Shown here one piece after another: positions 7,891 to 54,550 of a stretch of 64,000 nt of DNA. Source of the DNA: Nemertoderma westbladi (lineage: Eukaryota > Animalia > Xenacoelomorpha). The notes beneath the pieces were generated by a model. The model did no database searches and was not told the origin of the DNA. It worked only from the letters and a program-made list of their open reading frames with translations. Within the stretch, counting starts at the first letter, position 1. Every line of letters starts with the position of its first letter. The stretch is from the NCBI GenBank assembly GCA_032718475.1, contig JAUCBJ010005043.1, forward strand, positions 1 through 64,000. The letters run 5' to 3'. The translations under genes and the position numbers were made by a program.

Positions 7891-7952
7891 CATAACTACT
7901 GTATGACCCCCTTTAATAATCTCACCCCAAACATTGCTGTTAAAAAACTCAC

Positions 7953-26160: not shown

Positions 26161-26276
26161 TGGCGCATATTATACGTTCTTCTATGAACATTGAACCTAT
26201 TTAGGTCTACTGCAGTACAGCATTGGCCACACCTGGACTTTCTACATCCAGCCGGACTGGTATTCTTAGACCAATC

Positions 26277-26519
26277 ATGGCCAGTGGTACACGGGGAAAC
26301 AAACGTGACTCCTCTCCTGTAGAGTCAGATGATGCGCTCCAGCCTGGCGGTGTTGACGGACCCACTCCCGTTCCTGCCATCCCACCACATCATCCGGACC
26401 ATCCACCCCGTCGCAGAGTCATTGATGTATCTGATGTGGAGAAAATCGACAATGACATCGATTTCCAAGCATTCCGTAAGTGGCGGGAGGCATGGGGTGT
26501 CCACGCCCAACGCCACCAA
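26277..26519 (+). pseudogene. gag: Gypsy gag, N-terminal part (split by the Maverick)
   Basis: DIDFQAFRKWREAWGVHAQRHQ rejoins in frame with VELYPQKDQVYAL (54557 onward) when the Maverick and one TSD copy are removed. Confidence 0.8.
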
Positions 26520-26706
26520 AGTAGTAGGAGAAGCATAGCCCTCACCATACTCCTCCCTAGCTTGGGCTACGGGCTGCATCTCGGAGGGCTATTAAAAAGG
26601 TGCTAAATCGCGATGTTTAATGACCATCTGTCACCAACAGTATTGATTCGCGTCGTTGCCTTGCCTTCAACCAATCGTTGCTTATTCACCTACGCGTAGC
26701 CTAACC
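26520..26706 (+). repeat. Maverick left TIR (187 bp; degenerate extension to ~27030)
   Basis: Reverse complement of 54364-54550 with one mismatch seen; patchy similarity continues between 26890-27030 and 54130-54320. Confidence 0.97.
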
Positions 26707-27263
26707 ACGCGATGTCTGCCTTACTTCACCATATGTCACCATCAGCAGTTGCCATCAACCAATCGTAGCGTAGCCTAACCTCACGATGCCCGCCTTACTC
26801 GACTGACTGACTAACCCTAATGTTATTCACCTTTTCACCACGTTACCACCACCACCACGTTACCACCACCACTGTATACTGTATATGGTAACGACGTGGC
26901 CATCTACACGCATCATGCATATATTATATTATATTGATTGCCAACTCCACGACTGCTGTCACCAAATCAACAAACCAACCAGTATGATACATAGATTCCG
27001 TCACGTTCCAGCTACGCGTATACGAGCATTAGTGATTATTATTATTACGCAATAATTTTTTTGTTTATACAGTAGTTCCCTACCAGCTAATCAACCAATC
27101 AATAAACTGAATTTAGGCTATTTCTCAGTTTAAGACCTGTATTATTTTTGAAAATATCTTATATATATAATCTCTTGCTTTAATCACAATTAATCATTTG
27201 TAATGGTTTTAGTTTAAAAGTTTTTACTTTGTTTGTTTGATTTACAATAAAATAAATTAAATA

Positions 27264-27872: not shown

Positions 27873-28325
27873 ATGGATATTTTAAATGAAAAATGTCCAG
27901 TTTGCTATTCTAAGTTATTGCAACAACATCGAGATTATTATAAATGTGAAAATAAACATGCAACTTGCGTACAATGTATTGTACAATATTCCGAAATGAA
28001 TAATTATTGTTCTAAAATTTGTCCTATTTGTCGCGCACCCATATCTAAGTTTAATATAAAGTTGGCAAGTTATCAACCCTATTATTGGAAAGAGCTTCGC
28101 AATATAACTTATATTTCTGCGGAAAGTAATGATCCAGGAGATTTATTTACAATATTGGAGAATATTTTTTATAGAAATGTAGTACGACGCTGTTGCTACT
28201 ATATTCCTTATTTTTTTAGCAGCGAACATAAAAAAATCATTAGCGCGAAATTTTCGGGAAGTGATTTCCAAACCGCCGATGTTACCTATCATTATTTCGC
28301 GTATAAAGATGCTCACCATGCTTGA
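27873..28325 (+). CDS. Maverick RING-finger protein (putative E3 ligase)
   Basis: CPVC-x12-CENKH-ATCVQC...CPICR, C3HC4 pattern. Confidence 0.85.
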   Translation: MDILNEKCPVCYSKLLQQHRDYYKCENKHATCVQCIVQYSEMNNYCSKICPICRAPISKFNIKLASYQPYYWKELRNITYISAESNDPGDLFTILENIFYRNVVRRCCYYIPYFFSSEHKKIISAKFSGSDFQTADVTYHYFAYKDAHHA

Positions 28326-28541: not shown

Positions 28542-29225
28542 ATGGCTGACTTTAATTCAGGTCCATATAATTTAAACTTTCAAATGGGAACGAGTATGAT
28601 AATTTCTGGGCCATCTGGTTCTGGAAAGTCAACCTTTGTAAGCAATTTAATTAAACACAAGAATGGTTGTTTCAACGAAGCCCCCTTGCGAGTATTGTAT
28701 TGTTACGGGAGCAATCCCCCGACTATTCCCGGTATTACTCACCTTTACAAAGGTTTGCCCGAAAATATAGATAGTTTAGTGAATAGTCTAGATTTATTAA
28801 TTATAGATGATTTGTTAACAGAAACTGAGTCCAGTACAGCATTAACTGTATTGTTTACTAAGGTAGCTCATCATTCCAATATATTTATTTGTTTTATAAC
28901 GCAAAACATGTTTTACGGTGGGAAGCATAACCGCACAAGATCAATTAATAGCCATACTTTAGTATTAATGAAAAATCCGAGAGACAGTTTATCGGTTTTA
29001 AATTTCGCGAAGCAGATGTTACCAGGGCAGACCAAATTTTTAGTTGATTCCTATCAAGATGCGACAATTCAACCATTTTCACATTTCTTAATTGATTTAC
29101 GACAGGAAACACCCGAACATTTACGATTTAGATCTGATATATTTCGTAATCATAATTGTTACATTAAAAATTACACTGACTATAAACGTAGCGCAAATAA
29201 TAATAATAATAATAATGATAAATAA
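28542..29225 (+). CDS. A32/FtsK-like genome-packaging ATPase
   Basis: Walker A GPSGSGKS, Walker B LLIIDD, ITQN, RSINSH and KNPRD motifs of Polinton ATPases. Confidence 0.95.
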   Translation: MADFNSGPYNLNFQMGTSMIISGPSGSGKSTFVSNLIKHKNGCFNEAPLRVLYCYGSNPPTIPGITHLYKGLPENIDSLVNSLDLLIIDDLLTETESSTALTVLFTKVAHHSNIFICFITQNMFYGGKHNRTRSINSHTLVLMKNPRDSLSVLNFAKQMLPGQTKFLVDSYQDATIQPFSHFLIDLRQETPEHLRFRSDIFRNHNCYIKNYTDYKRSANNNNNNNDK

Positions 29226-29648: not shown

Positions 29649-30892
29649 ATGGTTAAAACAGGAGTAACATTTAGAAAATTATATTTAGTATCGAGTAAAC
29701 CGTTAGCTACTGATTTAAAACCTCAAGATATACCTAGAGTAAATACTACAAAAAGAAAACCCTTTAAAACATCAACTTCAACTTCAACTTCGGTTGTCGA
29801 AAAGATGCCTCGCAAGATGAAACCGATTTTAAGCCGAAGCTTAGACAAAAAACTGTTAAGAATTTATTTAGATCCTTCATCCCCTGCGGGATTTGCAAGT
29901 GTTGCAAAATTAGCAAAAGCTGCAAACATCAACCAGCACAAGCCCAGAAATGGCTGAGCGGGCAAAAGACATACACCCTTCACGCTCCACGTAGACATCA
30001 TTATCCAACATCTAAAATATTTACGGGAGGCATAAAAGATATATATATGATAGATTTGGTGGATATGCAGCAATATAAATCGCAAAATAATAATTATAAC
30101 TATATATTAACATGTATTGATGCCTTTAGCAGGCTTGCTTTTGGCTATGGTATGAAAACAAAAAAGGGTATTGAAATTATTAGTATATTGCAAAAAATAT
30201 TCCAGAAAGGAAAACCAAACAGAATCGCCACGGATCAAGGTTCTGAGTTTCTAAATAAATCTGTAAGGAAATATTTAGATACATTAGGTATACAGTATTA
30301 CGTAATGTACTCTGTGAATAAGGCGGCTATTGTCGAGAGATTCAATAGAACATTAAAAACAAAGATGTTCAAAATTTTTACACAACGGGGAAATAATGTT
30401 TGGATAAAAATTTTACCTAAGCTTATCTCAGCTTATAATAGGTCATAACATAGGACAATACAAATGACTCCCATTGAAGTTAATAAATTTAATGAAACTG
30501 AATTAATGAATAGATTATATGGGAAATGTAGACAGATTAATCACAAGAAAATAAAATTTAAAGTTGGAGATACAGTACGATTATCTATCGCTCGTACTGC
30601 TTTTGCTAAAGGCTATCGAGAACAATGGACACGTGAATTATTTATTATTCATCGTGTCAGGTTGGATAGAGTACCTGCTGTAATGTTCGATATTAAGGAC
30701 AGCGCTGGAGCTATAATAAATGGCTCATTTTATTCTCACGAACTCCAAAAGGTCCACCCGAATATTAATATTTATCTAGCAATTGACAAAAATATTGGCA
30801 AACTTAAAGAACGTGTACGCAATGGGAAGAAAGAATATTTAGTCCGATTCATTGGATCCAAGAAACAGTCGTGGGTACAGCATATTCAATAA
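29649..30892 (+). pseudogene. Maverick retroviral-like (c-int) integrase with chromodomain-like tail; one frameshift and one stop
   Basis: IYLDPSSPAGF, frameshift near 29940 into KWLSGQKTYTLH, D-D-E motifs (IDLVDM, TDQGSEF, VERFNRTLK), in-frame TAA at 30446-30448, then FKVGDTVR...WTRELF...EYLVRFIG. Confidence 0.93.
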
Positions 30893-31142: not shown

Positions 31143-32016
31143 ATGGCCACAGATACATATATCACTCTACTTTCAGATAGCTCATTAAACACTTACCCCA
31201 ATAATAATCCTAGTGAGTTTACTGTTGATTTAGCCGAAGAATTATATATTGGTCCAAACGCTAAAATTGGGCTTGCCGAGCTTCAATACCAAGCAACATA
31301 CAGTAATATTACGCTGCAAACTCAAATCTCGCTGTCAATCGGGGTAGATGCAAAAGATGCCAAATTATATAGTTTATTTCCTGGTATGCATAACTCTATT
31401 CAAGTCATTATTGATGATATAAATAAACTGTTTAATTCTGAAGCGAAATATAGAGATTTCGAATTCATTTTTAATACAAATAATTCTAGAATTAAATTTA
31501 AATTTCCTAAAAAGTTGAAAAAAATACAATTAAGTCTACGTGGTGATTTAATACAAATTCTAGGCTTAAAACCGTTATTGGATCGGAATCATCCAGATAT
31601 TCCGAATTGGGATATATACAGTACCACTACAGTAGATGAATTAAGCAATATAGAACAGCCGATATTAATTTTAAATTATAGTGGGGCCAAAAATTTCGGA
31701 AATTGGCATTTTAGATTTTCCAGCTCCCACGAATATAACACGTAATAAAGATACAATTTTCATATACACAGATATTATTAAGAGCTCATTTGTTGGTGAC
31801 GCTTTAGCTCCGCTCTTAAGAACCTGCCCTTTAACGCAATTAAATCGAAAATATATTAATCACGAATACGAGAGCATTTGCTATTACCCGTTGTTGAATA
31901 AAAAACTAAAAACAATCTTAATTACTTTACGTGATGGGTAAGGCGAATTAATTAACTTCAGCGGAGGTCGTACTGTTATAACACTTAAGTTAATACGGGG
32001 TGGCAGTGATGGATGA
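31143..32016 (+). pseudogene. Minor capsid protein (penton) 1, disrupted
   Basis: YITLLSDSSLNTYPNNNPSEF, IGLAEL; frameshift near 31690 into IFIYTDIIKSSFVGDALAPLLR; in-frame TAA at 31939-31941, then GELINFSGGRTVITL. Confidence 0.88.
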
Positions 32017-32855
32017 ATTCTACGTAAGACTACCGAGTAACTCCTGTCCAATTGATTTTCCCCGCAATAGCGCTAGTAATTATCAGATAAATTTCCACGG
32101 CGCCTTACCTATAAATCCAAACGAAAACTGGGTGGTAGGTATAAAAAGTATATTTTACTTAGCAACGTTACCGTCCATGTATAACAATGTAGAGAATGTT
32201 ATTTTATTAAAAAAAGGGAAAAAAAATTTTGAGGATACACTTCCATCTGGTTTGTTCTACAGTATCAATGACATTATAGATTATTTTAACATGGGGACGT
32301 TGAAAGATAAATTACAAATAGTTGAAAATACTCAGCAAAATAGGTTGCAATTTATTTTAGGGAAAACTGTGCGAGAGTTATTTATAGGTCAACAATTAGC
32401 CTATTATTTTGGAATTACTGAAAATAATCTCGGCGCGAATTTAAATCCAAATTTTAAAATTATTTTGAAGACGAAAAATAATATAAAGGGTTATTTAATA
32501 AAGGTTATCGGAAATGAAGAAAAAGCTTACCAGATGGTATTTTTATGCCCTCAATCACCCAATTCTATTCCAGAACCTAAGTCGAACATGTACGTGACTA
32601 CTAATATAATTGAAAATCAATATATTAACGATTTTGGTTTAGCTTTACTTCGTCGTGTCGCGATACCTGATGATGTGAAATATGGTAGCGTAATAAATAA
32701 AGAATTTGTCAAGGATACAATTCATTATATCCCTGTAAAAAAAATCATATAAGATAACATACATTCATATTGAAATAACAGACAAAGAAGGAAAAGATTT
32801 GAATTTTGAATATGGGACAACATCTATTACATTACACTTTAAACGAATAAATTAA
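32009..32855 (+). pseudogene. Minor capsid protein (penton) 2, frameshifted near the C-terminus
   Basis: FYVRLPSNS...FPRNSASNY, WVVGI, YVTTNIIENQYIND...LLR; shift in the A-run at ~32740 into IHIEITDKEGKDLNFEYGTTSITLHFK. Confidence 0.88.
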
Positions 32856-32856
32856 A

Positions 32857-33417
32857 ATGGATTCTGATTTATTTCAAAGATACAGTAAACCTCAATATGG
32901 TGGTTCAGACTCTAATCTTGCTGTTTTTAAAGGTGGTAGAAGTACCAGAGGTTCGACGCAAGTTCCTGTTTTTCAAGGTGGTTCATATATTGACCCTTAC
33001 GGTCAACAAATTGGTGCATTTGGTCCAAACTTAAAACAACGTCGTTTTCAGCGTTATCGTAGAGGTATGCAGGCAAATCAAGATGGAGAAGGTATATTTA
33101 CAGATGCTTTATCAACATTGAAAAAATTTGGTAAGCCATTAGCTAAAAAAGTTTTACAAAAAGCTTTACCATTTACCACAAAATTTATGAGACAACATGT
33201 AATACCAAAAGGTAAGCGGGTCTTACATCAGCAGGCTAATACGGTTATTAATAAAGCATTAAATAAAATGAAACCGTCAACAAGGTCAGTTGTAGAAAAA
33301 GTTTATAGAGATTTAAAGCGACCTGCTAGACCAATGTCTATGAACATACATCATCGACGTAGTAAAAAGAGAAATATAAAAGGCAAACTGAAACACTGCG
33401 AAAAAAGTATTTTTTAA
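32857..33417 (+). CDS. Arg/Lys-rich virion core protein with protease-site-like motifs
   Basis: QYGG, FKGG, FQGG, QIGAFG and QDGEGIF motifs; very basic; lies between penton and MCP as in Polintons. Confidence 0.75.
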   Translation: MDSDLFQRYSKPQYGGSDSNLAVFKGGRSTRGSTQVPVFQGGSYIDPYGQQIGAFGPNLKQRRFQRYRRGMQANQDGEGIFTDALSTLKKFGKPLAKKVLQKALPFTTKFMRQHVIPKGKRVLHQQANTVINKALNKMKPSTRSVVEKVYRDLKRPARPMSMNIHHRRSKKRNIKGKLKHCEKSIF

Positions 33418-33419
33418 TA

Positions 33420-34679
33420 ATGTCAATTATTAAGGAATTAGATTTATTTTCTACACAGCCAATACAGACTGAATTTAAAGCAAAGCATTATGAAACAATT
33501 TACCCCGTATCTAATCTCAGAAGTGAATCTAGGGAGGTTACGTTCCTTGTACCGAGATCCAATGAATTCTATACGAAACTGCAAGACGCGTTATTAATTA
33601 CAAAATGTACTGTACGCTGGGATAGACGACTTGAAAACTCCCATATTTATATGTTGAATTACCCCGCTGAAACTATGTGGAGTGATATTAAAATAGACCT
33701 TAATGAGAAGCAGGTTGAAAATAGCAATAACCATTATTTCTACAAGTCGTACTTATCCAATTTATTATTTACAACTTACGAGGATAAAAATGGGCTACTG
33801 GGTGCGGGTGGCTTTCATCAACCTTTATCTGAACACGGAAATGAAATTAATGCCGGCGCGCATCCTATTGACGAGGCCTTTAGTAAACAAATGCAATTTG
33901 TAAGTGGATTGACGATTGATTTTGATACTGAAAGCAAAATAATACAACCCGGGTATGATTTAAGAATGCATTTTAGAAAAGTATCAAATTCGTTTATTTT
34001 TAAAATCACTCCAAACGCAAACGCGGTGACAAATCTTCGGCTAGAATTAGATGAAATAAAGATCCTAATCCCTAGAATGGAGGTTAATCCGGTAATAGAA
34101 AGCAGTCACCTAAAAGGTTTAGAGAGTTACGATATTGAATATCAATTCCAAAAAAAGGAGGTGACAACATTTACTATTCCCGCTCAAACCACAAATGACA
34201 CCCAAACAAACATATTTGATGGTAAAAAACCCAAATTAGTTATTATCGGCTTCATAACAAATAATGCTTATTCGGGAGAATTAATTAGCAATCCCTTGAA
34301 ATTCGAACATTTTAACCTTAGACGCGCGGAACTGATTGTAGACGGTCTTCCAGTAGGGGGTGTAATATACGAGCCTAATTTTACAGATGGAACATACATT
34401 TTTGAGTATACTCAATTAATGAAAAACATTAATACATATATTAACGGTTATGGGGGTAATAATATAGACCATGAAACCTACTTAGGTAATTGTCCCCTCC
34501 TATCCTGGGACCTAACCGCCGACGGCTATGTTAGAGATCCGCAACCATCAATATATACTAACGGCCAATTAAAATTAAGATTTCCTGAACCGTTGGTTGA
34601 AACCATAAATGTAATCGTTTTTAATATTTATGATCAATCATTAAGTTTAAATAGCAGGAAAGAAATACATATCGATTAA
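33420..34679 (+). CDS. Double jelly-roll major capsid protein
   Basis: ELDLFSTQPIQT, YETIYPV, YFYKSYL, KPKLVIIGF, GELISNPLKFEHFNL, WDLTAD, GQLKLRF; intact 419 aa. Confidence 0.93.
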   Translation: MSIIKELDLFSTQPIQTEFKAKHYETIYPVSNLRSESREVTFLVPRSNEFYTKLQDALLITKCTVRWDRRLENSHIYMLNYPAETMWSDIKIDLNEKQVENSNNHYFYKSYLSNLLFTTYEDKNGLLGAGGFHQPLSEHGNEINAGAHPIDEAFSKQMQFVSGLTIDFDTESKIIQPGYDLRMHFRKVSNSFIFKITPNANAVTNLRLELDEIKILIPRMEVNPVIESSHLKGLESYDIEYQFQKKEVTTFTIPAQTTNDTQTNIFDGKKPKLVIIGFITNNAYSGELISNPLKFEHFNLRRAELIVDGLPVGGVIYEPNFTDGTYIFEYTQLMKNINTYINGYGGNNIDHETYLGNCPLLSWDLTADGYVRDPQPSIYTNGQLKLRFPEPLVETINVIVFNIYDQSLSLNSRKEIHID

Positions 34680-34681
34680 GT

Positions 34682-35134
34682 ATGTTATCTACAGAGGACC
34701 TTGATATGTTTCCAGTGGGTGGTCACTATTTGGGAGCGTTTCCAGCTAACAAATTACCTAAATTAGATAATAATAAGCGGAAAGATTATGGGTTGATAGT
34801 AAATACCGATAAAGAGCATCTTCCTGGGATTCATTGGATCGCAATATATATACGAGATAATGAGGCCGAAGTATTTGACTCGTTTGGACCAAAATATCCA
34901 AACAGATGCATCGAAAAATGGCTTGAGAAAAATTCCGCAAGGTGGCGTACTACTCGCAAACAATTTCAAGACCCTAGGCGGACCACATGCGGTCTGTACT
35001 GTCTTTATTATTTGGTAAATCGTATTCACACAATCTATCCAATGAGAGCGTTTACAAATAATGTGGAAATAAATGAAATAATATTATATAAATGGCTTGT
35101 TAATTATTATAAAATAAACCAACAAGCGTTGTAA
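34682..35134 (+). CDS. Adenain-like cysteine maturation protease
   Basis: VNTD, GIHW (His), FDSFG (Asp), Q-x6-CGLYC (Gln/Cys). Confidence 0.95.
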   Translation: MLSTEDLDMFPVGGHYLGAFPANKLPKLDNNKRKDYGLIVNTDKEHLPGIHWIAIYIRDNEAEVFDSFGPKYPNRCIEKWLEKNSARWRTTRKQFQDPRRTTCGLYCLYYLVNRIHTIYPMRAFTNNVEINEIILYKWLVNYYKINQQAL

Positions 35135-35165: not shown

Positions 35166-35765
35166 ATGGATAATATTATTTTTGTTGATTTTCAATATTA
35201 TAAGATAGACAATAACGAGTATCCGGTAGTATTTAAAGAATTTGCTATATTCGATTCTAATTACACCAAAACTAATATAAAGACGTTTTTAATTAAAGGC
35301 CCACCAAATATTAAGTTATCAGCATTAGATGCAGCCCACGTAAACAATTTACGGGATATGACTTCTCACTTGCCCTGGGACTACGGGGACATTTCGCAAG
35401 ATGACTTTAAAAAATATATGAAGAGACATTTAAAATATAAAAAAAATATTCATGTATTTGGGTTGATGAAGCAGGCAATATTAGTTTCCCAACTCGATGT
35501 TCTCGCGCCAAATTCGGTGGAGAAATTGGGAATATATAAGCAATATCATGATTATTTAACCCCTTGTCGGTTTCACGACCGATTTACTACAGTAGAAAAT
35601 AAATGTGCGTTCCACTTAAACATAAGGGATAACTGTCTGCGATACTGCTCAGCAAAATGCGTTGGGGGGTATGAGATGCTACACTTTTTCATGAGAAAGC
35701 GTTTAACTGCGACTGATGATGATGATAAACAGAAAGAAATAACTGCGGTGGAAGATGTTCTGTAG
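35166..35765 (+). CDS. Maverick accessory protein, DEDD/RNase H-fold-like with Cys/His tail
   Basis: IFVDFQ...FKEFAI...LPWDYGDI...IHVFG, CRFH...CSAKC; a pattern I recognise from Polinton accessory nuclease-like proteins. Confidence 0.6.
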   Translation: MDNIIFVDFQYYKIDNNEYPVVFKEFAIFDSNYTKTNIKTFLIKGPPNIKLSALDAAHVNNLRDMTSHLPWDYGDISQDDFKKYMKRHLKYKKNIHVFGLMKQAILVSQLDVLAPNSVEKLGIYKQYHDYLTPCRFHDRFTTVENKCAFHLNIRDNCLRYCSAKCVGGYEMLHFFMRKRLTATDDDDKQKEITAVEDVL

Positions 35766-36932: not shown

Positions 36933-37325
36933 TTAATAGTACCATTTATAAATTGGTTGCTGTTGCTGTTCCGGTTCCGGTTGCGGTTGTGGTTGTGAAT
37001 GTGTCACAACAACATCATTATCATCATCTTCCCATGGGTTGTTTGGGGGTAACATTGGATTTGTTATACCATCCTCCCAATTTTCTTGAGAAATTATACC
37101 GCCTGTATGAATTTTGCTATCGCTGGGTTGAATTCTCACATTTAATGTGAAATTTTTCATTGTTTTAAAATCTGTTATTTCGTTTCCTCTGTTATTTTTA
37201 ATTTCCATATGGAATTTGCCATCTTCAAGTTTCATACTAATGTCGACTATATTTGCCGCTTGAAGGTATACATCACCAGCTTCAAGATCGAATTTCATAG
37301 AACAACTTGTCACACTTGCTGTCAT
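36933..37325 (-). CDS. Maverick hypothetical protein (130 aa) with QP/Q-rich tail
   Basis: Intact ATG ORF, TATA-like sequence upstream; no family recognised. Confidence 0.6.
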   Translation of the reverse strand: MTASVTSCSMKFDLEAGDVYLQAANIVDISMKLEDGKFHMEIKNNRGNEITDFKTMKNFTLNVRIQPSDSKIHTGGIISQENWEDGITNPMLPPNNPWEDDDNDVVVTHSQPQPQPEPEQQQQPIYKWYY

Positions 37326-38003: not shown

Positions 38004-38546
38004 TTACATCAAAAACCCCACACCAAACAATAATAAATTATTAACCAGCTTGTTGAAAATAGGATAATATATATGAAATTTAAACGGGGAACACATTAAT
38101 GTACATTTACCAGTGTAGAAACAGCAAACAACAACAATATTATTTATTCTGACTTTACAGTTATTGAATATTTCAGGGTCGTATGAAATTTCTAGTTTAA
38201 CATTATCAAATATAACATAAAACCCGATATTATTTATAAGTAACCTATAAATTACAGTATCGATACTAAAAATATAAGTACACAAATTGATTGATTTAGA
38301 AATCAAATTAATGTTTGTTTTTTCTAATATATGTTTTTTCACTTTATTAAAATTATATTTTCTACCGAGAATTGTTATTCGTCCATTTGTAAACATTAAT
38401 ATGGTTGCACCAAATACCTTATATATAAACTGATTAGGTTTGAGTACAATTTTACCATTCAATTGCTTTTTTAATTCTTTTAAATTAAGTCCATAAATGA
38501 TCTGCTTACAACTTATATTTTTATTTACTATTTGATAATTCATCAT
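38004..38546 (-). CDS. Divergent TATA-binding-protein (TBP)-like protein
   Basis: Two-repeat TBP pattern: YQIVNKNISC...LNLKEL...QFIYK...ATILMFTNGRITILG, then KSINLCTYIF...YDPEIFNNCKVRI...VCCFYTGKCTLM (compare TBP YEPELFPGLIYRM...LIFVSGKVVLTG). Start taken at ATG 38546; ~180 aa. Confidence 0.78.
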   Translation of the reverse strand: MMNYQIVNKNISCKQIIYGLNLKELKKQLNGKIVLKPNQFIYKVFGATILMFTNGRITILGRKYNFNKVKKHILEKTNINLISKSINLCTYIFSIDTVIYRLLINNIGFYVIFDNVKLEISYDPEIFNNCKVRINNIVVVCCFYTGKCTLMCSPFKFHIYYPIFNKLVNNLLLFGVGFLM

Positions 38547-41500
38547 CAACACCGTCGTCTTTTGGTTCTTCATAAATTGGTATATTTGATATTTTTATAG
38601 GTTTTTTGAGGTTTGTTTTATAGTGCCCCCAAGGAAGCGATTGATTTTTATTAAGCCAATAAAGTTTATCATCAAAGCTACTGAGTGCAAATTTATTTTG
38701 CTTTAAGGTATAAATACGATGTAATTTAGATTGAAATCTGTGTATGTTTTTTTTTATTTCTTCATTTGAGTTATATGCTTTTAAATATTCTTCATGTGTA
38801 ATATTCGTTTCCACAACAGCTCTTGTAATACCTTTTGCTCTACGAATATTTTTATTATTCCATTCCAAAATTGAATATAATTTTGGTCTTAAAAATACTG
38901 CCTGTTTAATTTCAAGTGAGGCTAGTTCGTCTTTACAGTAATAGAGTCTGGATTTATTTTTATCACTGTAGAGTGGGTGATCCTTAGGGTAATTGGATGT
39001 ATCTAAAATATTATTTTTAATTAATGCTTTTAAAAAATTATTCTGCGATGTATTATAGTAACAACCTATCAATGAGTCAGTGTCTGATGCAGCAATTTCA
39101 ATACGGCAGTTTAATTCTTTCTCAATAGGTAGCAATTTATTGTAATACAGCTCATACATATCCAATTTAGCCAAGTCCAACACAGTGCTACCAATAAATA
39201 TAGGCTTATCGAGAGTTACAGAGTCTTTCACTAATAAATGTTCCGATAATGTATTATTGTATATTATAAATTGTTCATGATTAATACGATTTACCAATTG
39301 ATCGCATTTATCGTTGCTATTTGCGATACGAAAGTTATATCGATCTCTTATCTTTTCTATTGATTTGCCAAACAGCGAATTATTGAGCAATTTCGCGACA
39401 GCTGTTTCAATATAACTTTTTGCCAGTCACCTTTGATTAATATTAAAATCGATGTAATTTTTAAATACAAATTCTTGTTGAAAAGAATATAATTTATGTA
39501 GTTTAGTAACAATTAATCCATGTTTTATATAAAATTTTAACAGTTTCAAATGTAAATGATAAAACTCTTTATCAAATTGTGTCAGCATGAGTTTTGGTAT
39601 AGACATTCTATATTTACGGGTGGTACCTCTTTGTATTGACAAGTTATTAAATTGTTCCCGCATATAAGGTGAAAGCATTGATTCATTTATACTTAAATGC
39701 TCGGGGGCTAACGGTAATTGTAATGTTTGATCGTGAATAGCCTTGGGATAATTTAAATCACATATTAAAAAATATCCAGTAGATCAATGTCCATCAATGT
39801 CTAAATCTACCAAGTACTCGATTAGTTTTTCTGGAATTGCATTCTCTAAATGTTTAATACTTACTTCTTTAAATTGTGAGGTGGGTAGTTTTTTACTTAA
39901 ATTCCCAGAATATAAAGAGTTGAAATCAATATTAAAAATATGGCATTCTTCCTTAGTAGAATCATATGTACTTGTACCTGGTATATTTGATTCTATATAA
40001 TGTTTTTGACAAAATGAAACACCACCCCTAATTGATTTTTCAAAATCTCTATATGTCTGATAATCCTTTATTAATTCTATTTTACATTTATTATATTTTA
40101 GCGCGCAATCATAGGTAAATGACGCGATACTACAGTAAAAAACCGCTTCTAAATCGTAATTTTGTTTACAAACATTCCTAAAATTCTCAAATATATCGGC
40201 AAGCAAACAAACATCGAGTTTTAAATAGGCTAAAAGATAATCTTTGAGATTCACACAGTCGAATTCTACCCATGATATTCCCGCAAACCTATAATCTTCA
40301 ATTGTGCATGTTTTTTGACTTAAGTTACTAAAAAAATTATTTATAGACGGTAAACCAGTATCATTAAATTTATTAATATCTGTCAAGTACTCGTATGGAA
40401 ATACTCCTTTCCATTTAATTGTTGAGTTATTCAAGTTTGGATAAAAATGTTTCATTTCTTGTAGAGTAATAGGTAAAATTGAGCTTATATCATGACTGGC
40501 TACATCCTTTGTTGAACACTCAACTAAATTACTTAAAGAAAAGCTTAAAAATTGATATGTGTCTAAGAAACGTAACTCAATTTTCTTAGAAGTATTTTTA
40601 ATTGGGATAAACGCACTCAGTGAAATATATCGTTCTGTATTTCTCGGTATAACCTTTATATCCCAATCTGTGTATTTCTTATCTCTAAATCCGCTTTGTA
40701 ATATACAATGTATATCGTAATTGTTGGAATTATGGCCACAAAGTACATACAGGTATCGTTTCAATGATAAACTTCGGTTACAACTATTACAGGCTGCCGC
40801 AATATATTTACCTGTAATATGTGAATGGTGTCTGTTTTTCCCTACATTATTATTTAAAGTAACATTACAATAAAAACAAAATTTTGCTTGTTCAAAATTT
40901 ACAAAATCAATATTAGTAAATGACATAGTTTTATGAGTGTATATTTCTGACCAACAACATAATTCAGTTAAATCAGTATATAATGAATCTAAGAAATCTT
41001 GAATACAATTATTATTATTTGACTTTACGAATGTTTTCAAATGACATTTTGGAGCATCAATTAATTCAGTATTGGGAACAATTAAATAACTCACAGCACA
41101 CGGTATATGCTCCTGTATAATTTGATTATTAACTGTCGGTTGTAAGATACATTCTATATCAAAGTAGGTGACAAACAATGGGGATAAGGTTCTATCTAAA
41201 TTTGTAAAACTAATGTGTGTTCTTTTTTTATTAGGTAGTTTCTCGCGCTGACTTCTTCCTTGGTAGCAGGCGAGACAGTGTTGATAAAGAACTTCCGCTC
41301 GAAAAAAATGAGCCAAACACCTTTCGCAATATTTCCTATTCCTGATATGAAGTGTTCTCGTATTCAGCAATCGATTCAAGTTAGTTATGCAAACATAATG
41401 ATTCAGTTTAGGTACATTGTTATTTTTTACTACAAGTAATATATTTAATAACTGTTTATCAGGTGTAATTTTACTAAACGGAGGTTGTCTTAATATAGAT

Positions 41501-42585
41501 ACCGGGGTGCGTTTGTTGTCGTTATTCCAACATAGTAAATTAATTATATATTTTGAATTTTGTTTTTCAAAAAGTTTAATCGCTAACTGCCACTCTGTTG
41601 GATAATCTTTGTTCCCATTGTCAAAAATGAAATGAGTCATATAATTTTTGTACGATGAAGTATGGTTTTTATTATTTTTCACTTTGCTACCAAATTTTGC
41701 GGATATAATAGCCCATTTGAAACAATCATTATCAGCCGTTTGTATATTTATTGTACATTTTTTAGCTGATAAAGCCTTAGGTAATTCCATATATCCATGC
41801 CCCTTATATAGTAACGATCTACACTTAGATTCAGCTAATTTAATTTCAACCCTTAATAAAGATTTAATACGCCACCCAGAACCACGTGTGTTAAAGATGG
41901 CTATTTTTTGTAATATATTTTCCACAACATACTCAAACCATGTGTCAAAACTTTGCGGTGAATCTACAGTATTAATAGCACCACCGGAAGAATTAAAATA
42001 AAAGGTTTCCAATTGCTCACCTTCTGAAAAATGTGACCTGTACATTAATACATTTAGACCTAACCACAGTCTAAGAACATTCATTTCTTTCAATCTGTCT
42101 AATATTAACTGAAGAATATTACCTCGAATTTGTGTTAATGCTGTTTCTACATCGGGATAATCTCTAGAAGTTGGGAGGTCGTGGACATAAATTTCAAGAC
42201 GATTATCGTGAGCTTCTTGTTCCCGCGTAAAAATTATTGCGCATGTACCAAGAGCCACCCTTAAGTTTTTTCTAGATAATATATTTTTATGTTGCGGAGA
42301 TTTACGCTTTCTTGTGTAGTAACATTTCAAGTGACAATCGTGTCGTAAATAATTGTCATATGTATACTCTTTATTACAGGTAGAACAAGTCAATTGATAG
42401 GTGCGGAACTCCATTTCTTTACAACCAGTAGTTGATTCAAGTCGTTTACAAATTTCGCTGCATGAAGTCACGACATGACACTTTAAACAAGAATAACTTT
42501 CAAAATGTGACCGTAGGTGGCGTAAATAATTATGTCTAGTTACATTCATATGACAGAATGAACAACATATTGTTATTTTATCCAT
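38521..42585 (-). pseudogene. Protein-primed family B DNA polymerase (~1354 aa) with N-terminal Zn fingers and an HNH/EndoVII insert; two in-frame TGA stops
   Basis: One reading frame with TGA at 39784-39786 and 39427-39429. GSGW, CFKWA, exonuclease motifs YFDIEC/HNSNNYD/FLDT/YLKLDV, HNH-like CFYC...RHHSHITGKY...CNSCN, polymerase motifs DFNSLY, KLLNNSLFGK, SDTDS, PKLY, RAKG. Confidence 0.96.
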
Positions 42586-42781: not shown

Positions 42782-43846
42782 TTACATGTTAGGATAATAA
42801 TCTGGTTTCCATGGAGAATTAGTAACAGGCTCTACTAGAACTGGGTTACTGACAACTTTCTGTTTCTTTGCAGGTGATGCGTTGGTAAATTTACTCGATG
42901 ATCTTGGCTTCCGAGGTAATATTTCAGGAAAGACCTGTTGCGGTTGAGAGCAACTCTCTTCAACATCCGGATTAGGTGATGGGATCTCTACGAAAGCTTT
43001 AGGTTTATCCAAAAGGACAAAACCGTCAACATGGGCTTCAGTAAGAGAAACGCCATCCATCGATTCTTTGAGAAAACTAATATGGGCTTTATCATTCAAG
43101 TAATGCAACTCGATAGAATTTCCGCCGGCACCTACTTCAGTAGAATTATCGGTGTTGGTGATAATAATTTTTTTATTATTGGTTTTAATCATTTTGAGAC
43201 GGTCTGATAATTGAATGATATTTTTATCAAAAAGATGCTTGTCTGTTTCATCGACTTGGTTGTCCCACTCTCGCAACAAAACGGTTAGTTCCTGTTTTGA
43301 CAAATTGAAACCTGTATAATAGTTAAAACCAACACTATCAGCGTATCTGAGGCTGATTTTCCATAAGCCAACATAGTTGGTTCCTTTAAAAGCTGTTACA
43401 AATCCAATAAACTCTGGATTTGATAATTCAATGTAGAATTGATCGCTAATAATCTCTAGCGGTGGAGAGAGAAATTGCAATAATTTCCCTCTGTATTGAA
43501 TTAGAACTTCAATAAAAGCTTTGTTGAGAACTTTACATTTGCCTTGTTTCTGAACGTAAACATCACCCGATGTGGGGTTGATGGAAATATTCAAATTTCC
43601 CCGCGCAAAACGAAGAGTGGGATATATCCTACCTGGTATAATTGCTGGTCTGTATTGATGTTGGTTGTTGTTGGTTGTTTCTAGAATGTCTAACAAATAG
43701 CGGGTATCTTGATGGGAAAAACAAATTGATTCGTTGTCCTCCTGAGATTCCACAATAAAATACTTGCTGTGAACGACGGTACAAGTATATTTATTGTAAG
43801 TAAATTTCCAGCTATTTGTTGCTCCGGTTTTTTGCGTTAAGGCCAT
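42782..43846 (-). CDS. Maverick protein with a PC4-like ssDNA-binding/coactivator domain
   Basis: FVTAFKGTNYVGLWK...YTGFNLSKQELTVL matches the PC4 pattern V..FKG...IDIR...GISL...QW..L; NLS-like PAKKQK at the C-terminus. Confidence 0.6.
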   Translation of the reverse strand: MALTQKTGATNSWKFTYNKYTCTVVHSKYFIVESQEDNESICFSHQDTRYLLDILETTNNNQHQYRPAIIPGRIYPTLRFARGNLNISINPTSGDVYVQKQGKCKVLNKAFIEVLIQYRGKLLQFLSPPLEIISDQFYIELSNPEFIGFVTAFKGTNYVGLWKISLRYADSVGFNYYTGFNLSKQELTVLLREWDNQVDETDKHLFDKNIIQLSDRLKMIKTNNKKIIITNTDNSTEVGAGGNSIELHYLNDKAHISFLKESMDGVSLTEAHVDGFVLLDKPKAFVEIPSPNPDVEESCSQPQQVFPEILPRKPRSSSKFTNASPAKKQKVVSNPVLVEPVTNSPWKPDYYPNM

Positions 43847-46043
43847 AATCTAATATATATAAATCTCGATTGTCTGTGTGTTTGTCATCGGCTATACAAT
43901 CGAACCCATCTCGATGAAATCTCGCTTGCTATAGCTCGTTAGAAAGGTCTCGCCCTAACTCGTTGCAACGTAATACTCAGAGTCGTCTGAAGTTCGCCCG
44001 TCTGCCGCTAGAGGGCGATTTTCGTGATTTTCGGGCGAAATTTATCGAATTATTTCGGTTCTTCTATCGGTAATTAATGATTTAGAGGGCTAACATTTAT
44101 CCCACCTGGTATAAAATTAACATGGGTAGATTCGCCGTGTCCCATTCTCACAAAGTATTTATTTTATTCGAGTGTTTAATATAAATATGTATGATTATTT
44201 ATTGATTAAAAAACAAATAGTGTATAAATATGTCATATTCGCCAAGCACGATCGAATTGGCCTATTGTTATTGAATAGGGAAGGATTGTTTTCTGTAGCA
44301 ACCTTAAGGTAATTATTGAACTCGCAGCTAGCTGGCTGGGCACAGATAAGGAGCAAGCAGGCTGGAGTGTTGATTGGGGTGGGTTTGGGTTGTAGTAATT
44401 CTGCTTTCTCAATCATTGGCTGCATGGAAGGAGAGGTTTATAACATTTTTGTTTTACTGTTATGAATATTAAAAGTAAAAATAATTATTTCTATAGGCCT
44501 ATACTTACTGTATTATTATGTTATCTAATATTATACATCTAATCTCGATGAAATCTCGCTTACTATAGCTCGTTAGATAGGTCTCGCCCTAACTCGTTGC
44601 AACGTAATACTCAGAGCCGTCTGAAGTTCCCCCGTCTGCCGCTAGAGGGCGAATTATCCGATAGTGAAAACCTGATCTTATTGGGTTGTTTTTAATGCTT
44701 TTGAGCTGAAACTTGGTAGCTATATACTGCAGCATAGGCTGTATATTTCCGGAGTCACTGGGTGGTCTACAGTTCCCCAGTCTACCGTTAGAGTGCTAAA
44801 TGTCTGAGAGATAACATCTTCTCCAACTTTATTATTTACAATCCGTTTTGACTGAAACTTGGTAGGCATCTACTACAGCATAGGCTGAATCTTTACTGAG
44901 TCGCAGAGTCGTCTACAATTTCCCAGTCTACCGCTAGAGGGCGAAATGTCTGCAAGTTAACATCTTCTCCAACTTTGTTATTTATAATCCATTTAGACTG
45001 AACTTGGTAGGCATCTACTACAGCATAGGCTATATCTTTACTGAGTCGCGCAGAGTTGTCTACAGTACCCGCGTCTGCCGCTAGAGGGCGAAATGTATGA
45101 AAGTTAACATCTGCTCCAACTTTGTTATTTACAATCCTTTTAGACTGAAACTTGGTAGGCATCTACTATAGCATAGGCTATATCTTTGCGGAGTAGTAGA
45201 GTCGTCTACAGTTCCACAGTCAGACGCAAGAGGGCGAATTGTCTGATAGTGAAAACCTCATCCCATTTGGTTCTTTTTAATCCTTTTGAGCTGAAACTTG
45301 GCAGGTATCTACTACATCCTAGGCTCTATCTTTACGGAGTTGCAGAGTCCTATACACTTCCCCAGTCTACCGCTAGAGGGTGAAATGTCTGAAAATTAAC
45401 ATCTTCTCCAACTTTGTTATTTACAAACGGTTTAGACTGAAACTTGGTAGGCATCTACTACAGCATAGGCTCTACCTTTACGGAGTCGCAGAGTTGTATA
45501 CAGTTCCCCTATCTGCCGCTAGAGGGCGAATTGTCTGATAGTGAACACCTCATCCCAATTGGTTCTCTTTAATCCCTTTGAGCTGAAACTTGGCAGGAAT
45601 CTACTGCAGCATATTCTGTATCTTTACGGAGTCCCAGAGTCGTCTACAGTTCTTCAGTCTACCGCTAGAAGTCTGAATGTGAACATCTACACCAATTTTG
45701 TTATTTACAATCTGTTTAAGCTGAAACTTGAAAGGCAGGCATTTTACTTCACCATAAACCCCACCTTTACCAAACTGCAGCGCCGTCTGCATTTCACCAG
45801 TCCGCAGGTAGAGGGTGGATCTGAAAGTGATCATTTTCTGGAAATTTTGTTATTTACAATCTGACTAAAGTTGAAACTTGACAGTTATCTCTTATGGGGG
45901 TGGTGTTTTATTTAATGATGGTGTCTGTTCCGTATGCAGTTCTCCAATCTCCCACACATATTCATATATCATCTGCACGTGCACTAGAAAGCTGTGGCCC
46001 GAAGGGCCACAGGCTTTCTAGTCTAATATATATAAATATCGAT

Positions 46044-46075
<32 letters not shown>

Positions 46076-48282
46076 ATCAGCTATACAATCGAACCCATCT
46101 TGATGAAATCTCGCTTGCTATAGCTCGTTAGAAAGGTCTCGCTCTAACTCGTTGCAACGTAATACTCAGAGTCGTCTGAAGTTCACCCGTCTGCCGCTAG
46201 AGGGCGATTTTCGTGATTTTCGGGCGAAATTTATCGAATTATTTCGGTTCTTCTATCGGTAATTAATTATTTAGAGGGCTAACATTTATCCCATCTGGTA
46301 TAAAATTAACATGAGTAGATTCGCCGTGTCCCATTCTCACAAAGTTTTTATTTTATTCGAGTGTTTAATATAAATATGTATGATTATTTATTGATTAAAC
46401 ACCAAATAGTGTATAAATATGTCATATTCGCCAAGCACGATCGAATTGGCCTATTGGTATTGAATAAGGAAGGATTGTTTTCTGTATCATAGCAACGTTA
46501 AGGTAATTATTGAACTCGCAGCTAGCTGGCTGGGCACAGATAAGGAGCAAGCAGGCTGGAGTGTTGATTGGGGTGGGTTTGGGTTGTCTATTGCGAATTG
46601 CTCAGAGTAATTCTGTTTTCTCAATCATTGGCTGCATGGAAGGAGAGGTTTATAACATTTTTGTTTTACTGTTATGAATACCGGTATTAAAAGTAAAATA
46701 ATTATTATTTCTGTAGGCCTATACTTACTGTATTATTATTTTATCTAATATTATACATCTAATCTCGATGAAATCTCGCTTACTATAGCTCGTTAGATAG
46801 GTCTCGCCCTAACTCGTTGCAACGTAATACTCAGAGCCGTCTGAAGTTCCCCCGTCTGCCGCTAGAGGGCGAATTGTCCGATATTGAAAACCTGATCTCA
46901 TTGGGTTGTTTTTAATGCTTTTGAGTTGAAACTCTGTAGCTATATACTGCAGCATAGGCTGTATATTTCCGGAGTCACTGAGTTGTCTACAGTTCCCCAG
47001 TCTACCGTTAGAGGGCTAAATGTCTGAGAGTTAACATCTTCTCCAACTTTGTTATTTATAATCCGTTTAGACTGAACTTGGTAGGCATCTACTACAGCAT
47101 AGGCTATATCTTTACTGAGTCGCGCAGAGTTGTCTACAGTACCCGCGTCTGCCGCTAGAGGGTGAAATGTATGAAAGTAAACATATTTTCCAACTTTGTT
47201 ATTTACAATCCTTTTATACTGGAACTTGGTAGGCATCTACTATAGCATAGGCTATATCTTTGCGGAGTAGTAGAGTCGTCTACAATTCCCCAGTCTACCG
47301 CTAGAGGGCGAAATGTCTGAAAGTTAACATCTTCTCCAACTTTGTTATTTATAATCCATTTAGACTGAACTTGGTAGGCATCTACTACAGCATAGGCCAT
47401 ATCTTTACTGAGTCCCGCAGAGTTGTCTACATTACCCGCGTCTGCCGCTAGAGGGCGAAATGTATGAAAGTTAACATCTCCTCCAACTTTGTTATTTACA
47501 ATCCTTTTAGACTGAATCTTGGTAGGCATCTACTATAGCATAGGCTATATCTTTGCAGAGTAGTAGAGTCGTCTACAGTTCCACAGTCAGCCGCTAGAGG
47601 GCGAATTGTCTGATAGTGAAAACCTCATCCCATTTGGTTCTTTTTAATCATTTTGAGCTGAAAATTGGTAGGCATCTACTACAGCATAGGCTGTACCTTT
47701 ACGGAGTCGCAGAGTTGTATACAGTCCCCCCCCCCATATGCCGCTAGAGGGCGAAATATCTGATAGTGAACACCTCATCCTATTTGGTTCTTTTTAATCC
47801 TATTGAGCTGGAACTTGGCAGGAATCTACTACAGCATATTCTGTATCTTTACGGAGCCCCAGAGTCGTCTACAGTTCTTCAGTCTACCGCTAGAGGGTGA
47901 AATGTCTGAATGTAAACATCTACACCAATTTTGTTATTTACAATCTGTTTAAGCTGAAACTTGAAAGGCAGGCATTTTACTTCACCATAAACCCCATCTT
48001 TACCAAACTGCAGCGCCGTCTGCATTTCACCAGTCCGCAGGTAGAGGGTGGATCTGAAAGTGATCATTTTTCTGGAAATTTTGTTATTTACAATCTGCCT
48101 AAAGTTGAAACTTGACAGTTATCTCTTATGGCGGTGGCGTTTTATTTAATGATGGTGTCTGTTCCGTATGCAGTTCTCAAATCTCAAACACATATTCATA
48201 TATCATCTGCACTGCACGTGCACTAGAAAGCTGTGGCCCGAAGGGCCACAGGCTTTCTAGTCTAATATATATAAATCTCGAT

Positions 48283-48314
<32 letters not shown>

Positions 48315-49204
48315 ATCAGCTATACAATCGAACCCATCTCGATGAAATCTCGCTTGCTATAGCTCGTTAGAAAGGTCTCGCTCTAACTCGTTGCAACGTA
48401 ATACTCAGAGTCGTCTGAAGTTCACCCGTCTGCCGCTAGAGGGCGATTTTCGTGATTTTCGGGCGAAATTTATCGAATTATTTCGGTTCTTCTATCGGTA
48501 ATTAATTATTTAGAGGGCTAACATTTATCCCATCTGGTATAAAATTAACATGAGTAGATTCGCCGTGTCCCATTCTCACAAAGTTTTTATTTTATTCGAG
48601 TGTTTAATATAAATATGTATGATTATTTATTGATTAAAAACCAAATAGTGTATAAATATGTCATATTCGCCAAGCACGATCGAATTGGCCTATTGGTATT
48701 GAATAGGGAAGGATTGTTTTCTGTATCATAGCAACGTTAAGGTAATTATTGAACTCGCAGCTAGCTGGCTGGGCACAGATAAGGAGCAAGCAGGCTGGAG
48801 TGTTGATTGGGGTGGGTTTGGGTTGTCTGTTGCGAATTGCTCAGAGTAATTCTGCTTTCTCAATCATTGGCTGCATGGAAAAGGAGAGGTTTATAACATT
48901 TTTGTTTTACTGTTATGAATATTAAAAGTAAAATAATTATTTCTGTAGGCCTATACTTACTGTATTATTATTTTATCTAATATTATACATCTAATCTCGA
49001 TGAAATCTCGCTTACTATAGCTCGTTAGATAGGTCTTGCCCTAACTTGTTGCAACGTAATACTCAGAGCCGTCTGAAGTTCCACCGTCTGCCGCTAGAGG
49101 GCGAATTGTTCGATACTGAAAACCTGATCTCATTGGGTTGTTTTTAATGCTTTTGAGCTGAAACTTGGTTGCTATATACTGCAGCAGCAGCATAGGCTGT
49201 ATAT

Positions 49205-50440
49205 TTCCGGAGTCACTGAGTTGTCCACAGTTCCCCAGTCTACCGTTAGAGGGCTAAATGTCTGAGAGTTAACATCTTCTCCAACTTTGTTATTTACAAT
49301 CCGTTTAGACTGAAACTTGGTAGGCATCTACTACAGCAATGGCTGTATCTTTACTGAGTCGCAGAGTCGTCTACAATTCCCCAGTCTACCGCTAGAGGGC
49401 GAAATGTCTGAAAGTTAACATCTTCTCCAACTTTGTTATTTACAATCCGTTTAGACTGAAACTTGGTAGGCATCTACTACAGCAAAGGCTGTATCTTTAC
49501 TGAGTCGCAGAGTCGTCTACAATTCCCCAGTCTACCGTTAGAGGGCTAAATGTCTGAGAGATAACATCTTCTCCAACTTTGTTATTTACAATCCGTTTAG
49601 ACTGAAACTTGGTAGGCATCTACTACAGCAAAGGCTGTATCTTTACTGAGTCGCAGAGTCGTCTACAATTCCCCAGTCTACCGCTAGAGGGCGAAATGTC
49701 TGAAAGTTAACATCTTCTCCAACTTTGTTATTTACAATCCGTTTAGACTGAAACTTGGTAGGCATCTACTACAGCAAAGGCTGTATCTTTACTGAGTCGC
49801 AGAGTCGTCTACAATTCCCCAGTCTACCGTTAGAGGGCTAAATGTCTGAGAGTTAACATCTTCTCCAACTTTGTTATTTACAATCCGTTTAGACTGAAAC
49901 TTGGTAGGCATCTACTACAGCAAAGGCTGTATCTTTACTGAGTCGCAGAGTCGTCTACAATTCCCCAGTCTACCGCTAGAGGGCGAAATGTCTGAGAGTT
50001 AACATCTTCTCCAACTTTGTTATTTACAATCCGTTTAGACTGAAACTTGGTAGGCATCTACTACAGCAAAGGCTGTATCTTTACTGAGTCACAGAGTCGT
50101 CTACAATTCCCCAGTCTACCGCTAGAGGGCTAAATGTCTGAGAGTTAACATCTTCTCCAACTTTGTTATTTACAATCCGTTTAGACTGAAACTTGGTAGG
50201 CATCTACTACAGCAAAGGCTGTATCTTTACTGAGTCGCAGAGTCGTCTACAATTCCCCAGTCTACCGCTAGAGGGCGAAATGTCTGAAAGTTAACATCTC
50301 CTCCAACTTTGTTATTTACAATCCTTTTAGACTGAAACTTGGTAGGCATCTACTATAGCATAGGCTATATCTTTGCGGAGTAGTAGAGTCATCTACAGTT
50401 CCACAGTCAGCCGCTAGAGGGCGAATTGTCTGATAGTGAA
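49205..50440 (+). repeat. Homogeneous 146-bp tandem repeat expansion within Helitron unit 3
   Basis: ccg(c/t)tagagggc motif recurring at ~49389, 49535, 49681, 49827, 49973, 50119, 50265 and 50411. Confidence 0.93.
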
Positions 50441-50681
50441 AACCTCATCCCATTTGGTTCTTTTTAATCATTTTGAGCTGAAACTTGGTTGGTATCTACT
50501 ACATCATAGGCTGTATCTTTACGGGGTTGCAGAATCCTATTCACTTCCCCAGTCTACCGCTAGAGGGTGAAATGTCTGAAAGTTAACATCTTCTCCAACT
50601 TGTTATTTACTAACGGTTTAGACTGAAACTTGGTAGGCTTCTACTACAGCATAGGCTGTACCTTTTCGGAGTCACAGAGTT

Positions 50682-50743
50682 CTAAGTGGTTAGCATAACT
50701 GAACGTTTTTCGGGAGACGCGGGTTCGATCCCCGCTGGTGGCA
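50682..50743 (+). other. tRNA-like fragment captured in Helitron unit 3
   Basis: agtggttagca (partial A box) and gcgggttcgatccccgc (T arm/B box); absent from the equivalent repeat in the other units. Confidence 0.7.
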
Positions 50744-53700: not shown

Positions 53701-54363
53701 AATGAATCAAATATACAACGAGTAAGATAATGAAGAAATTATTAAGGAAAAAAACACAATGTCAGAGTGAGAACAAAAAATTAGATATGGTATCAATATA
53801 TTACCATGAAGATTACAAGTGATGAATTGTATTTAAAACATTCAGTTATATATATATAAATTTGCGATGTGGCATAGTCAACGAAGAAGAGATGGGACGT
53901 GTCATAATCATCGACGAATAAGAAAAGAGATAGAGTGCAACGTGGATGAATAGCTGGCTGGTTGATTGCGTGGATAGGAAATACGTGAAAGAATATGAAT
54001 CATAGGGTTGTGTGTAATAATAATCAATAATTATTATAATAAAAAACGCACTGTATAATGTTAGTGGTGGTGGTAGCCTTTCAATATGGCACAGATGCTG
54101 TGGGATTGGTTAGGTTGAGTAACTATGGAAATGTTCGTATACGTGTAGCTGGAACGTGGCGGAATTTCACGTATCATGCGTTGGACTGGTAGGCTGCTTG
54201 GTTGGTTGGTTTGGCAACAGCCGTCGAAGAGTAGCACTGGCTAGCGGTGGTGAGTTGGCAATCGATATAATATCGGGTGGGGTATATGTGTGGTGATGCA
54301 TGTAGATGGCCACGTCGTCGTTAGTAGTGTTAACAGCATTCAGTCGGTCGATCGGTGGATCGA

Positions 54364-54550
54364 GGTTAGGCTACGCGTAGGTGAATAAGCAACGATTGGT
54401 TGAAGGCAAGGCAATGACGCGAATCAATACTGTTGGTGACAGATGGTCATTAAACATCGCGATTTAGCACCTTTTTAATAGCCCTCCGAGATGCAGCCCG
54501 TAGCCCAAGCTAGGGAGGAGTATGGTGAGGGCTATGCTTCTCCTACTACT
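54364..54550 (-). repeat. Maverick right TIR
   Basis: Reverse complement of 26520-26706. Confidence 0.97.

Follow-up and report, generated by a model that had tools for sequence, protein, structure and literature searches.

The 64,000-nucleotide stretch of DNA analysed here (the window) contains an integrated Polinton that occupies positions 26520-54550 (28.0 kb) and is bounded by terminal inverted repeats (TIRs) of 190 nt that are 99% complementary. The left TIR (26520-26709, forward strand) begins with AGTAGT and has CACCAA just before it at 26514-26519, and the right TIR (54361-54550, reverse strand) is directly followed by the same six letters at 54551-54556; both the 6-bp target duplication on the two flanks and the AGT-type ends are those by which Polintons/Mavericks are recognized. 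The insertion interrupts an LTR retrotransposon within its gag-like frame (26205-26519 and 54551-55246), a frame that continues past the right TIR and then into reverse-transcriptase sequence, and the target duplication encodes His-Gln at either side of it. The initial annotation had taken the element to be about 18 kb long, which is not its actual span but corresponds to what is left after removal of an internally duplicated block of 146-bp tandem repeats, about 9.7 kb in length (43850-53600, no strand assigned, ends approximate, with loose ends near 43850-44020). This block is probably a secondary insertion and is reminiscent of helitron-type elements with amplified central repeats, to which it may be akin. 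Its duplicated blocks carry TGTC microsatellites, and it starts just ahead of the start of a 354-aa ORF.

The forward strand of the Polinton carries a RING-finger-like ORF near the left end (27873-28325; weak Pfam RING matches), a packaging ATPase-like ORF with a P-loop (28542-29225; Pox_A32 E 0.003, below cut-off), a retroviral-type integrase with one frameshift and one stop (29649-30892; rve E 4.7e-11), two putative minor capsid genes (31143-31941, frameshifted and labelled from its position and resemblance, and 32009-32752, likewise inferred), a basic 186-aa ORF that may encode a core protein (32857-33417), the major capsid protein (33420-34679), an adenovirus-type maturation protease (34682-35134; Peptidase_C5 E 1.4e-5, above cut-off) and a 199-aa ORF (35166-35765) whose start looks DEDD-exonuclease-like by eye and for which Pfam and PHROG searches were blank. 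The major capsid protein has 43 relatives among 3,679 candidates, two of them named capsid proteins of Porites lobata at 24-25% identity. Integrase, ATPase, capsid and protease, genes by which a Polinton is recognized, are all present, with the ATPase below family cut-offs. The reverse strand carries a 130-aa ORF of unassigned family (36933-37325; no match above cut-off in Pfam or PHROGs), the ORF that is the subject of this report, a polymerase gene (38521-42585) that occupies a single frame with in-frame stops at 39784-39786 and 39427-39429, and, upstream of the polymerase, the 354-aa ORF (42782-43846), also of unassigned family and with no usable match in Pfam, PHROGs or other libraries. 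A PC4-like pattern seen by eye at residues 150-195 of the latter had no library support and was set aside. We take the polymerase to be a protein-primed DNA polymerase B (pPolB) from family-B and exonuclease motifs seen by eye, a label for which Pfam, PHROGs and two further library searches gave no support. Searches of viral contigs with the capsid and the polymerase came back without relatives, Rfam gave no match, and a Pfam scan of 18 element ORFs or pieces, limited in sensitivity, recognized neither a TFIIB nor an RNA polymerase subunit. The polymerase, the integrase and one minor-capsid-like gene are broken; this copy is decayed, and its own activity therefore cannot be assumed.

Between the 130-aa ORF and the polymerase lies a two-lobed, divergent ORF resembling the TATA-binding protein (TBP), at 38004-38573 on the reverse strand, which encodes 189 aa from its first methionine or 180 aa from Met10 (38546). 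The initial annotation had described an ORF of about 180 aa inside the TIRs, overlapping the pPolB 3' end by 26 nt and containing both TBP half-repeat motifs; the open frame is there, the start at 38546 being Met10, the overlap is exact when counted from that codon to the polymerase stop at 38521 (it is 53 nt from Met1), and both motifs are found in the translation. The encoded protein is basic, with 23 Lys and Arg residues and 7 Asp and Glu. To our knowledge, TBP is not among the Polinton hallmark genes.

Homology to TBP, as had been proposed, was borne out by profile comparison. The Pfam TBP family (PF00352) matches the ORF at 26.6 bits, above the cut-off of 22.9 bits (E 5.6e-6), in two stretches, and a profile made from archaeal TBPs (32 sequences at <72% identity, retained from the 60 that 120 loci yielded) scores it at 17.0 bits, with residues 18-157 collinear over the full profile and both lobes aligned. 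Against the archaeal profile the best of 2,000 shuffled sequences, 1,837 of which were reported, reached 8.7 bits, and the next best of the 230 ORFs in the window 3.1 bits. In the ESM Atlas, TBP appeared in 29 of 30 matches (top value 0.95), although the recognition value of 1703 lies below the guide value of 2300. As a single-sequence query, on the other hand, the ORF retrieved nothing from the PDB (phmmer), 0 of 168 candidates and none of 1.84 billion representatives, and single-sequence queries of viral contigs, plasmids and PHROGs likewise returned nothing. Such blank searches are what a mere chance likeness to TBP would give, and recent capture of a host TBP or TRF2 draws some room from the fact that the tree described below includes neither eukaryotic TBP nor TRF2. 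Both ideas are largely refuted, and we regard them as very improbable. Together with the selection described below, this makes the ORF a real Polinton gene of the TBP family, under selection and very divergent.

Closer relatives were reached through the capsid. Searching with an alignment of capsids brought up 14 metagenomic loci, one of which (L140) is another Polinton, covered over 11.6 of 23 kb, with a capsid 22% identical to that of the present element and a 169-aa TBP at 3154-3663, just before the ATPase. The L140 protein matches yeast TBP at E 1e-11 and is 23% identical to our ORF over 131 residues; the other 13 loci gave no TBP match, but as fragments of 1.0-5.3 kb they are no test of absence. 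L140 also encodes a KilA-N gene (304-1164) and a phospholipase A2-like gene (2248-2649). A two-sequence profile then drew 81 proteins, mostly of 165-175 aa, from 451 candidates, and among the 82 members of this short-TBP family the genomic context is known for one, L140. A profile of 58 family sequences (L140 together with 57 selected from the 81 on length and rank, the query ORF being left out) scores the ORF at 32.9 bits, with shuffles reaching up to 11.2 bits, and hhalign gives 94.8%; the comparison profiles gave 19.1 bits (10 large-virus TBPs) and 17.0 bits (archaea).

The family has a shortened N-lobe stirrup without the first phenylalanine, and several marks recur in it that are also present in our ORF. 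Pro (57/58) and Gln (56/58) stand at fixed distances before the N-lobe Phe, forming a K-P-x-Q stirrup; N-x-N/H occurs in the first strand (58/58; N-x-N in the ORF); and a basic residue is found four positions after the C-lobe Phe (52/55). Each mark is absent from the archaeal TBPs (0/32, or 0/31), and among large-virus TBPs Pro was seen in 1/11, Gln and N-x-N in 0/11 and the basic residue in 0/8. Phe at the canonical first N-lobe position shows the reverse distribution: 0/58 in the family, 32/32 in archaea and 9/11 in large viruses. Because these marks were picked by eye from an alignment containing the query, they are descriptive more than a test. In a tree of 51 rows (20 family, 4 weak-match, 10 large-virus and 16 archaeal sequences), the query joins the short-TBP family at 100/98, with warnings over composition and over a long branch (4.34, flagged unsure). 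Judged by profile scores and residues, the ORF is closer to the short-TBP family than to archaeal or large-virus TBPs. It is nevertheless a far outlier, lacking the equivalents of the C-lobe Pro191 (after F136) and Gly216, both of which the family retains, and carrying about 8 extra C-lobe residues, and L140 is the cleaner test case. The family alignment matched one large-virus locus only (L148), where a cell-like TBP (9956-10516) lies directly before the major capsid gene.

The degree of divergence makes it necessary to consider that the ORF is a fading remnant, a family TBP inherited with a relaxed or lost role. The very long branch, the extra residues, the lost Pro and Gly, the low confidence of the predicted C-lobe and the failure to find a promoter motif are all in keeping with such a fate, and given five breaks in about 13.7 kb of coding DNA a 570-nt ORF would escape disruption by chance in about 4 of 5 cases, so the intact frame of this copy says little. 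Sister copies speak against it. Contigs from four sequencing runs span the region with many variants, which indicates that the element is a multi-copy family, and one sister contig is 81% identical to the ORF, gapless over 38200-38488, with 54 differences. The comparison used 40 of 56 variant rows, of which 36 were assigned to the contig by depth, and covers residues 29-125 only. Of the 36 listed differences, third codon positions account for 24 (p 4e-5). Silent and replacing changes number 18 each against a background of 20% silent sites, which gives a rough, uncorrected replacement/silent ratio of about 0.25. Two indels are listed in the ORF, an in-frame one close to its start and a single-base variant, at about 1/5 of the depth, that lies a few codons upstream of the stop; no frame-breaking indel or stop is listed in the ORF body across the four runs. 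Conservation in sister copies, on which the first reading had made its case depend, thus holds as purifying selection relative to one sister contig over those residues, and decay of the gene's role appears improbable to us.

Structure prediction placed TBPs first, as loose matches. From the single sequence the fold was uninformative (pLDDT 34), and a model built on a 55-row alignment reached pLDDT 67 and pTM 0.55, with a confident N-lobe and residues 93-112 below pLDDT 50. Foldseek returned TBP-containing entries in every listed row to rank 43, 11 of them with E up to 0.001, as loose matches (TM 0.33-0.42, rmsd 8.6-11.6 A); a wide structure search placed TBPs first (Z 8.7, 8.4 and 7.1, the next fold being at 5.9), with alignments of 141-150 residues spanning 4-175 of 180 at rmsd 5.6-6.4 and TM <0.45; and among viral structures, proteins named as TBP-like were matched at E 0.002 or weaker. 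Because the model was folded with TBP-family rows, it is not independent evidence of fold. As to the saddle fold named in the initial annotation, TBPs match first, but a clean saddle was not reproduced and the C-lobe is of low confidence.

The residues of the two functional surfaces have diverged to different extents. Mapped by eye onto the yeast TBP positions listed in PMC12529657 (Table 1), 5 of 16 DNA-facing residues are identical, N69, L114, F116, F190 and F207 corresponding to N17, L59, F61, F136 and F152; this agrees with the divergence of the DNA-contacting strands that had been noted. Three of the four intercalating phenylalanines are kept (F61, F136 and F152), and the first-lobe Phe position is taken by P46/N47. 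In the family register an equivalent of F99 is absent, whereas the archaeal-profile register alternatively puts F49 there; the predicted model places F49 in the following strand. According to PMC3142196, the Phe pair that includes F99 introduces the kink at the TATA box's 3' end. On the other surface, the acidic pair of the C-lobe stirrup is kept, as D132/E134 in the ORF and in 54 of 55 family members, and both acid positions contact TFIIB as described in PMC7221094. We infer that the lost kinking Phe and the polar DNA-face residues would give the protein an altered DNA specificity.

This pattern bears on two further roles that the protein may have. It could act as a decoy or repressor, binding host TFIIB or occupying TATA boxes unproductively and so damping host or element transcription. 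TFIIB acids retained while most DNA-facing positions have changed would suit such a protein, as would its size of only 180 aa without the extra Pol II-recruiting domain of the herpesvirus protein ORF24, and a cognate box was not found in this element. The changes on the DNA face are, however, fixed family-wide and not scattered, and the family member L140 carries a strand-specific upstream box; recognition therefore fits better, and we consider a decoy rather unlikely. Alternatively, the protein might bend DNA outside transcription, for instance at the terminal repeats in protein-primed replication, in integration or in packaging, as could be suggested by its basic charge and by a gene that overlaps the polymerase end and sits in the replication arm. 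The L140 homologue, however, precedes the ATPase and not the polymerase, and a DNA-bending protein would have no need to keep the TFIIB acids, so to this role we assign only a small probability.

The box just mentioned is the heptamer YATAAAC, which was first spotted by eye in L140. There the coding strand has 15 copies and the other strand 0, and 7 of the 15 lie 15-80 nt before a start, a zone covering 8% of the total length (p 7e-5, calculated post hoc). The box precedes 7 of 8 structural-block genes (starts 3732, 4389, 5101, 6195, 6698, 8224 and 9992) and does not precede the TBP gene; motif sampling gave 8.48 bits as compared with at most 7.81 in 15 shuffles, which were run with fewer restarts. 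Another upstream word in L140, ATTTTCA, is common to the KilA, 150-aa, 102-aa and 133-aa ORFs and the TBP gene and may be either splice-acceptor-like or an early-gene signal. In the present element, the 9 structural-block genes share no upstream motif (7.20 bits versus a shuffled mean of 7.14 and a maximum of 7.80), and YATAAAC stands before only 2 of 16 starts. The idea of a cognate box thus holds for the relative L140 and is unsupported in this element, for which a private-promoter role is weaker because no shared upstream box was found; this element may instead rely on a single long transcript or on another signal, or may have no such signal. Two other candidates were dropped: TACWGTA is common throughout the window, with 107 occurrences versus 13 expected, some of them in a 51-bp array at 6250-7900 and others dispersed, and TATAAAA occurs 53 and 76 nt ahead of Met10, but both copies fall within the polymerase coding sequence, 9 such sites being present in 15.4 kb.

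We lean, if only slightly, towards the view that the TBP-like protein is the promoter-recognition factor of the element and works with host TFIIB and Pol II, counting in its favour the purifying selection, the homology across both lobes, the position behind the polymerase gene, the retained phenylalanines and acids, the box of L140 and the precedent of KSHV ORF24. The protein would be made with or after the polymerase and would bind an altered AT-rich, TATA-type box in the minor groove, through its intact stirrup it would draw host TFIIB and Pol II to virion genes, and the outcome would be an early-to-late switch. The suggestion that the element redirects host polymerase to its own promoters accordingly stands as the best reading, with a box in L140 but none in this element. 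A broader proposal, to which we give somewhat less than an even chance, is that a widespread Polinton lineage possesses the smallest known private switch, in which a bare, rewired TBP and a lineage box would be combined with host TFIIB and Pol II and would co-evolve, the signal of this member being different. The private-promoter idea is best tested in L140, with its less diverged TBP and its strand-specific YATAAAC, and the short-TBP family as a whole offers natural TBP variants without one kinking Phe. If true, a one-protein TBP switch bears on how polymerase-less Polintons turn on their virion genes and marks these Polintons as viruses with a timed programme.

Viral use of TBP has been hinted at in this group before. 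TBP is a label in figure legends for MELD viruses with an adintovirus-like PolB (PMC8502044, Fig. 5; bioRxiv 10.1101/697771, Figs 5-6), so that there, too, a virus of the Polinton group, mid-sized and with linear dsDNA, has a TBP-like gene (Starrett 2021); that label belongs to the section on non-animal datasets, where no analysis accompanies it, whereas the ORF described here lies in an integrated element with TIRs and a target duplication. One supplement of PMC8502044 contains neither TBP nor TATA as a whole word, and within the literature searched, from which most subscription journals fell outside, a TBP gene in this virus group was found only in Starrett et al. The statement that no characterized example is known is therefore right in that none was found, but a TBP gene had already been labelled in MELD viruses; the Polinton TBP is a variant form of viral TBP use at which print has hinted and which the searched literature does not characterize.

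Among known systems, the element itself is like Polintons/Mavericks (adintoviruses) in its TIRs, 6-bp duplication, integrase, ATPase, capsid, protease and pPolB-like gene, and is unlike others in accessory ORFs that match no known family. Its TBP-like protein shares with cellular TBP (PF00352; 1ytb, 1cdw, 1mp9) the order of the lobes, the five conserved DNA-facing residues and the acidic C-lobe stirrup. Unlike cellular TBP, it is only 15-20% identical, has no N-terminal extension, an N-lobe stirrup 3-4 residues shorter and a shorter helix H2, and besides the missing F99 the equivalents of N159, P191, V71, V122, T124, L205, V213 and T215 are changed. KSHV ORF24, a beta/gamma-herpesvirus vTBP, is described in PMC12529657 as a protein of 752 aa that has viral partners and a Pol II-binding domain of its own, keeps all four phenylalanines and lacks the TFIIB acids. 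It resembles our ORF in its polar DNA face and in belonging to a virus without its own RNA polymerase that uses the vTBP for late promoters, whereas the Polinton protein, in contrast to herpesvirus vTBPs (ORF24/BcRF1/UL87) as portrayed there, is a bare core of about 180 aa with the acids kept and one Phe missing. The TBP-like proteins of nucleocytoviruses, as presented in PMC7221094, are also virus-encoded, divergent and two-lobed, with the L5.1 Phe in both lobes, and those viruses that have a TBP nearly always encode their own TFIIB; in this Polinton no TFIIB was recognized, and the 11 large-virus TBPs compared here lack the N-x-N and the basic residue. If the preferred reading is true, the Polinton switch would therefore differ both from the multi-protein herpesvirus mimic that bypasses TFIIB and from the nucleocytovirus arrangement of a TBP with its own TFIIB.
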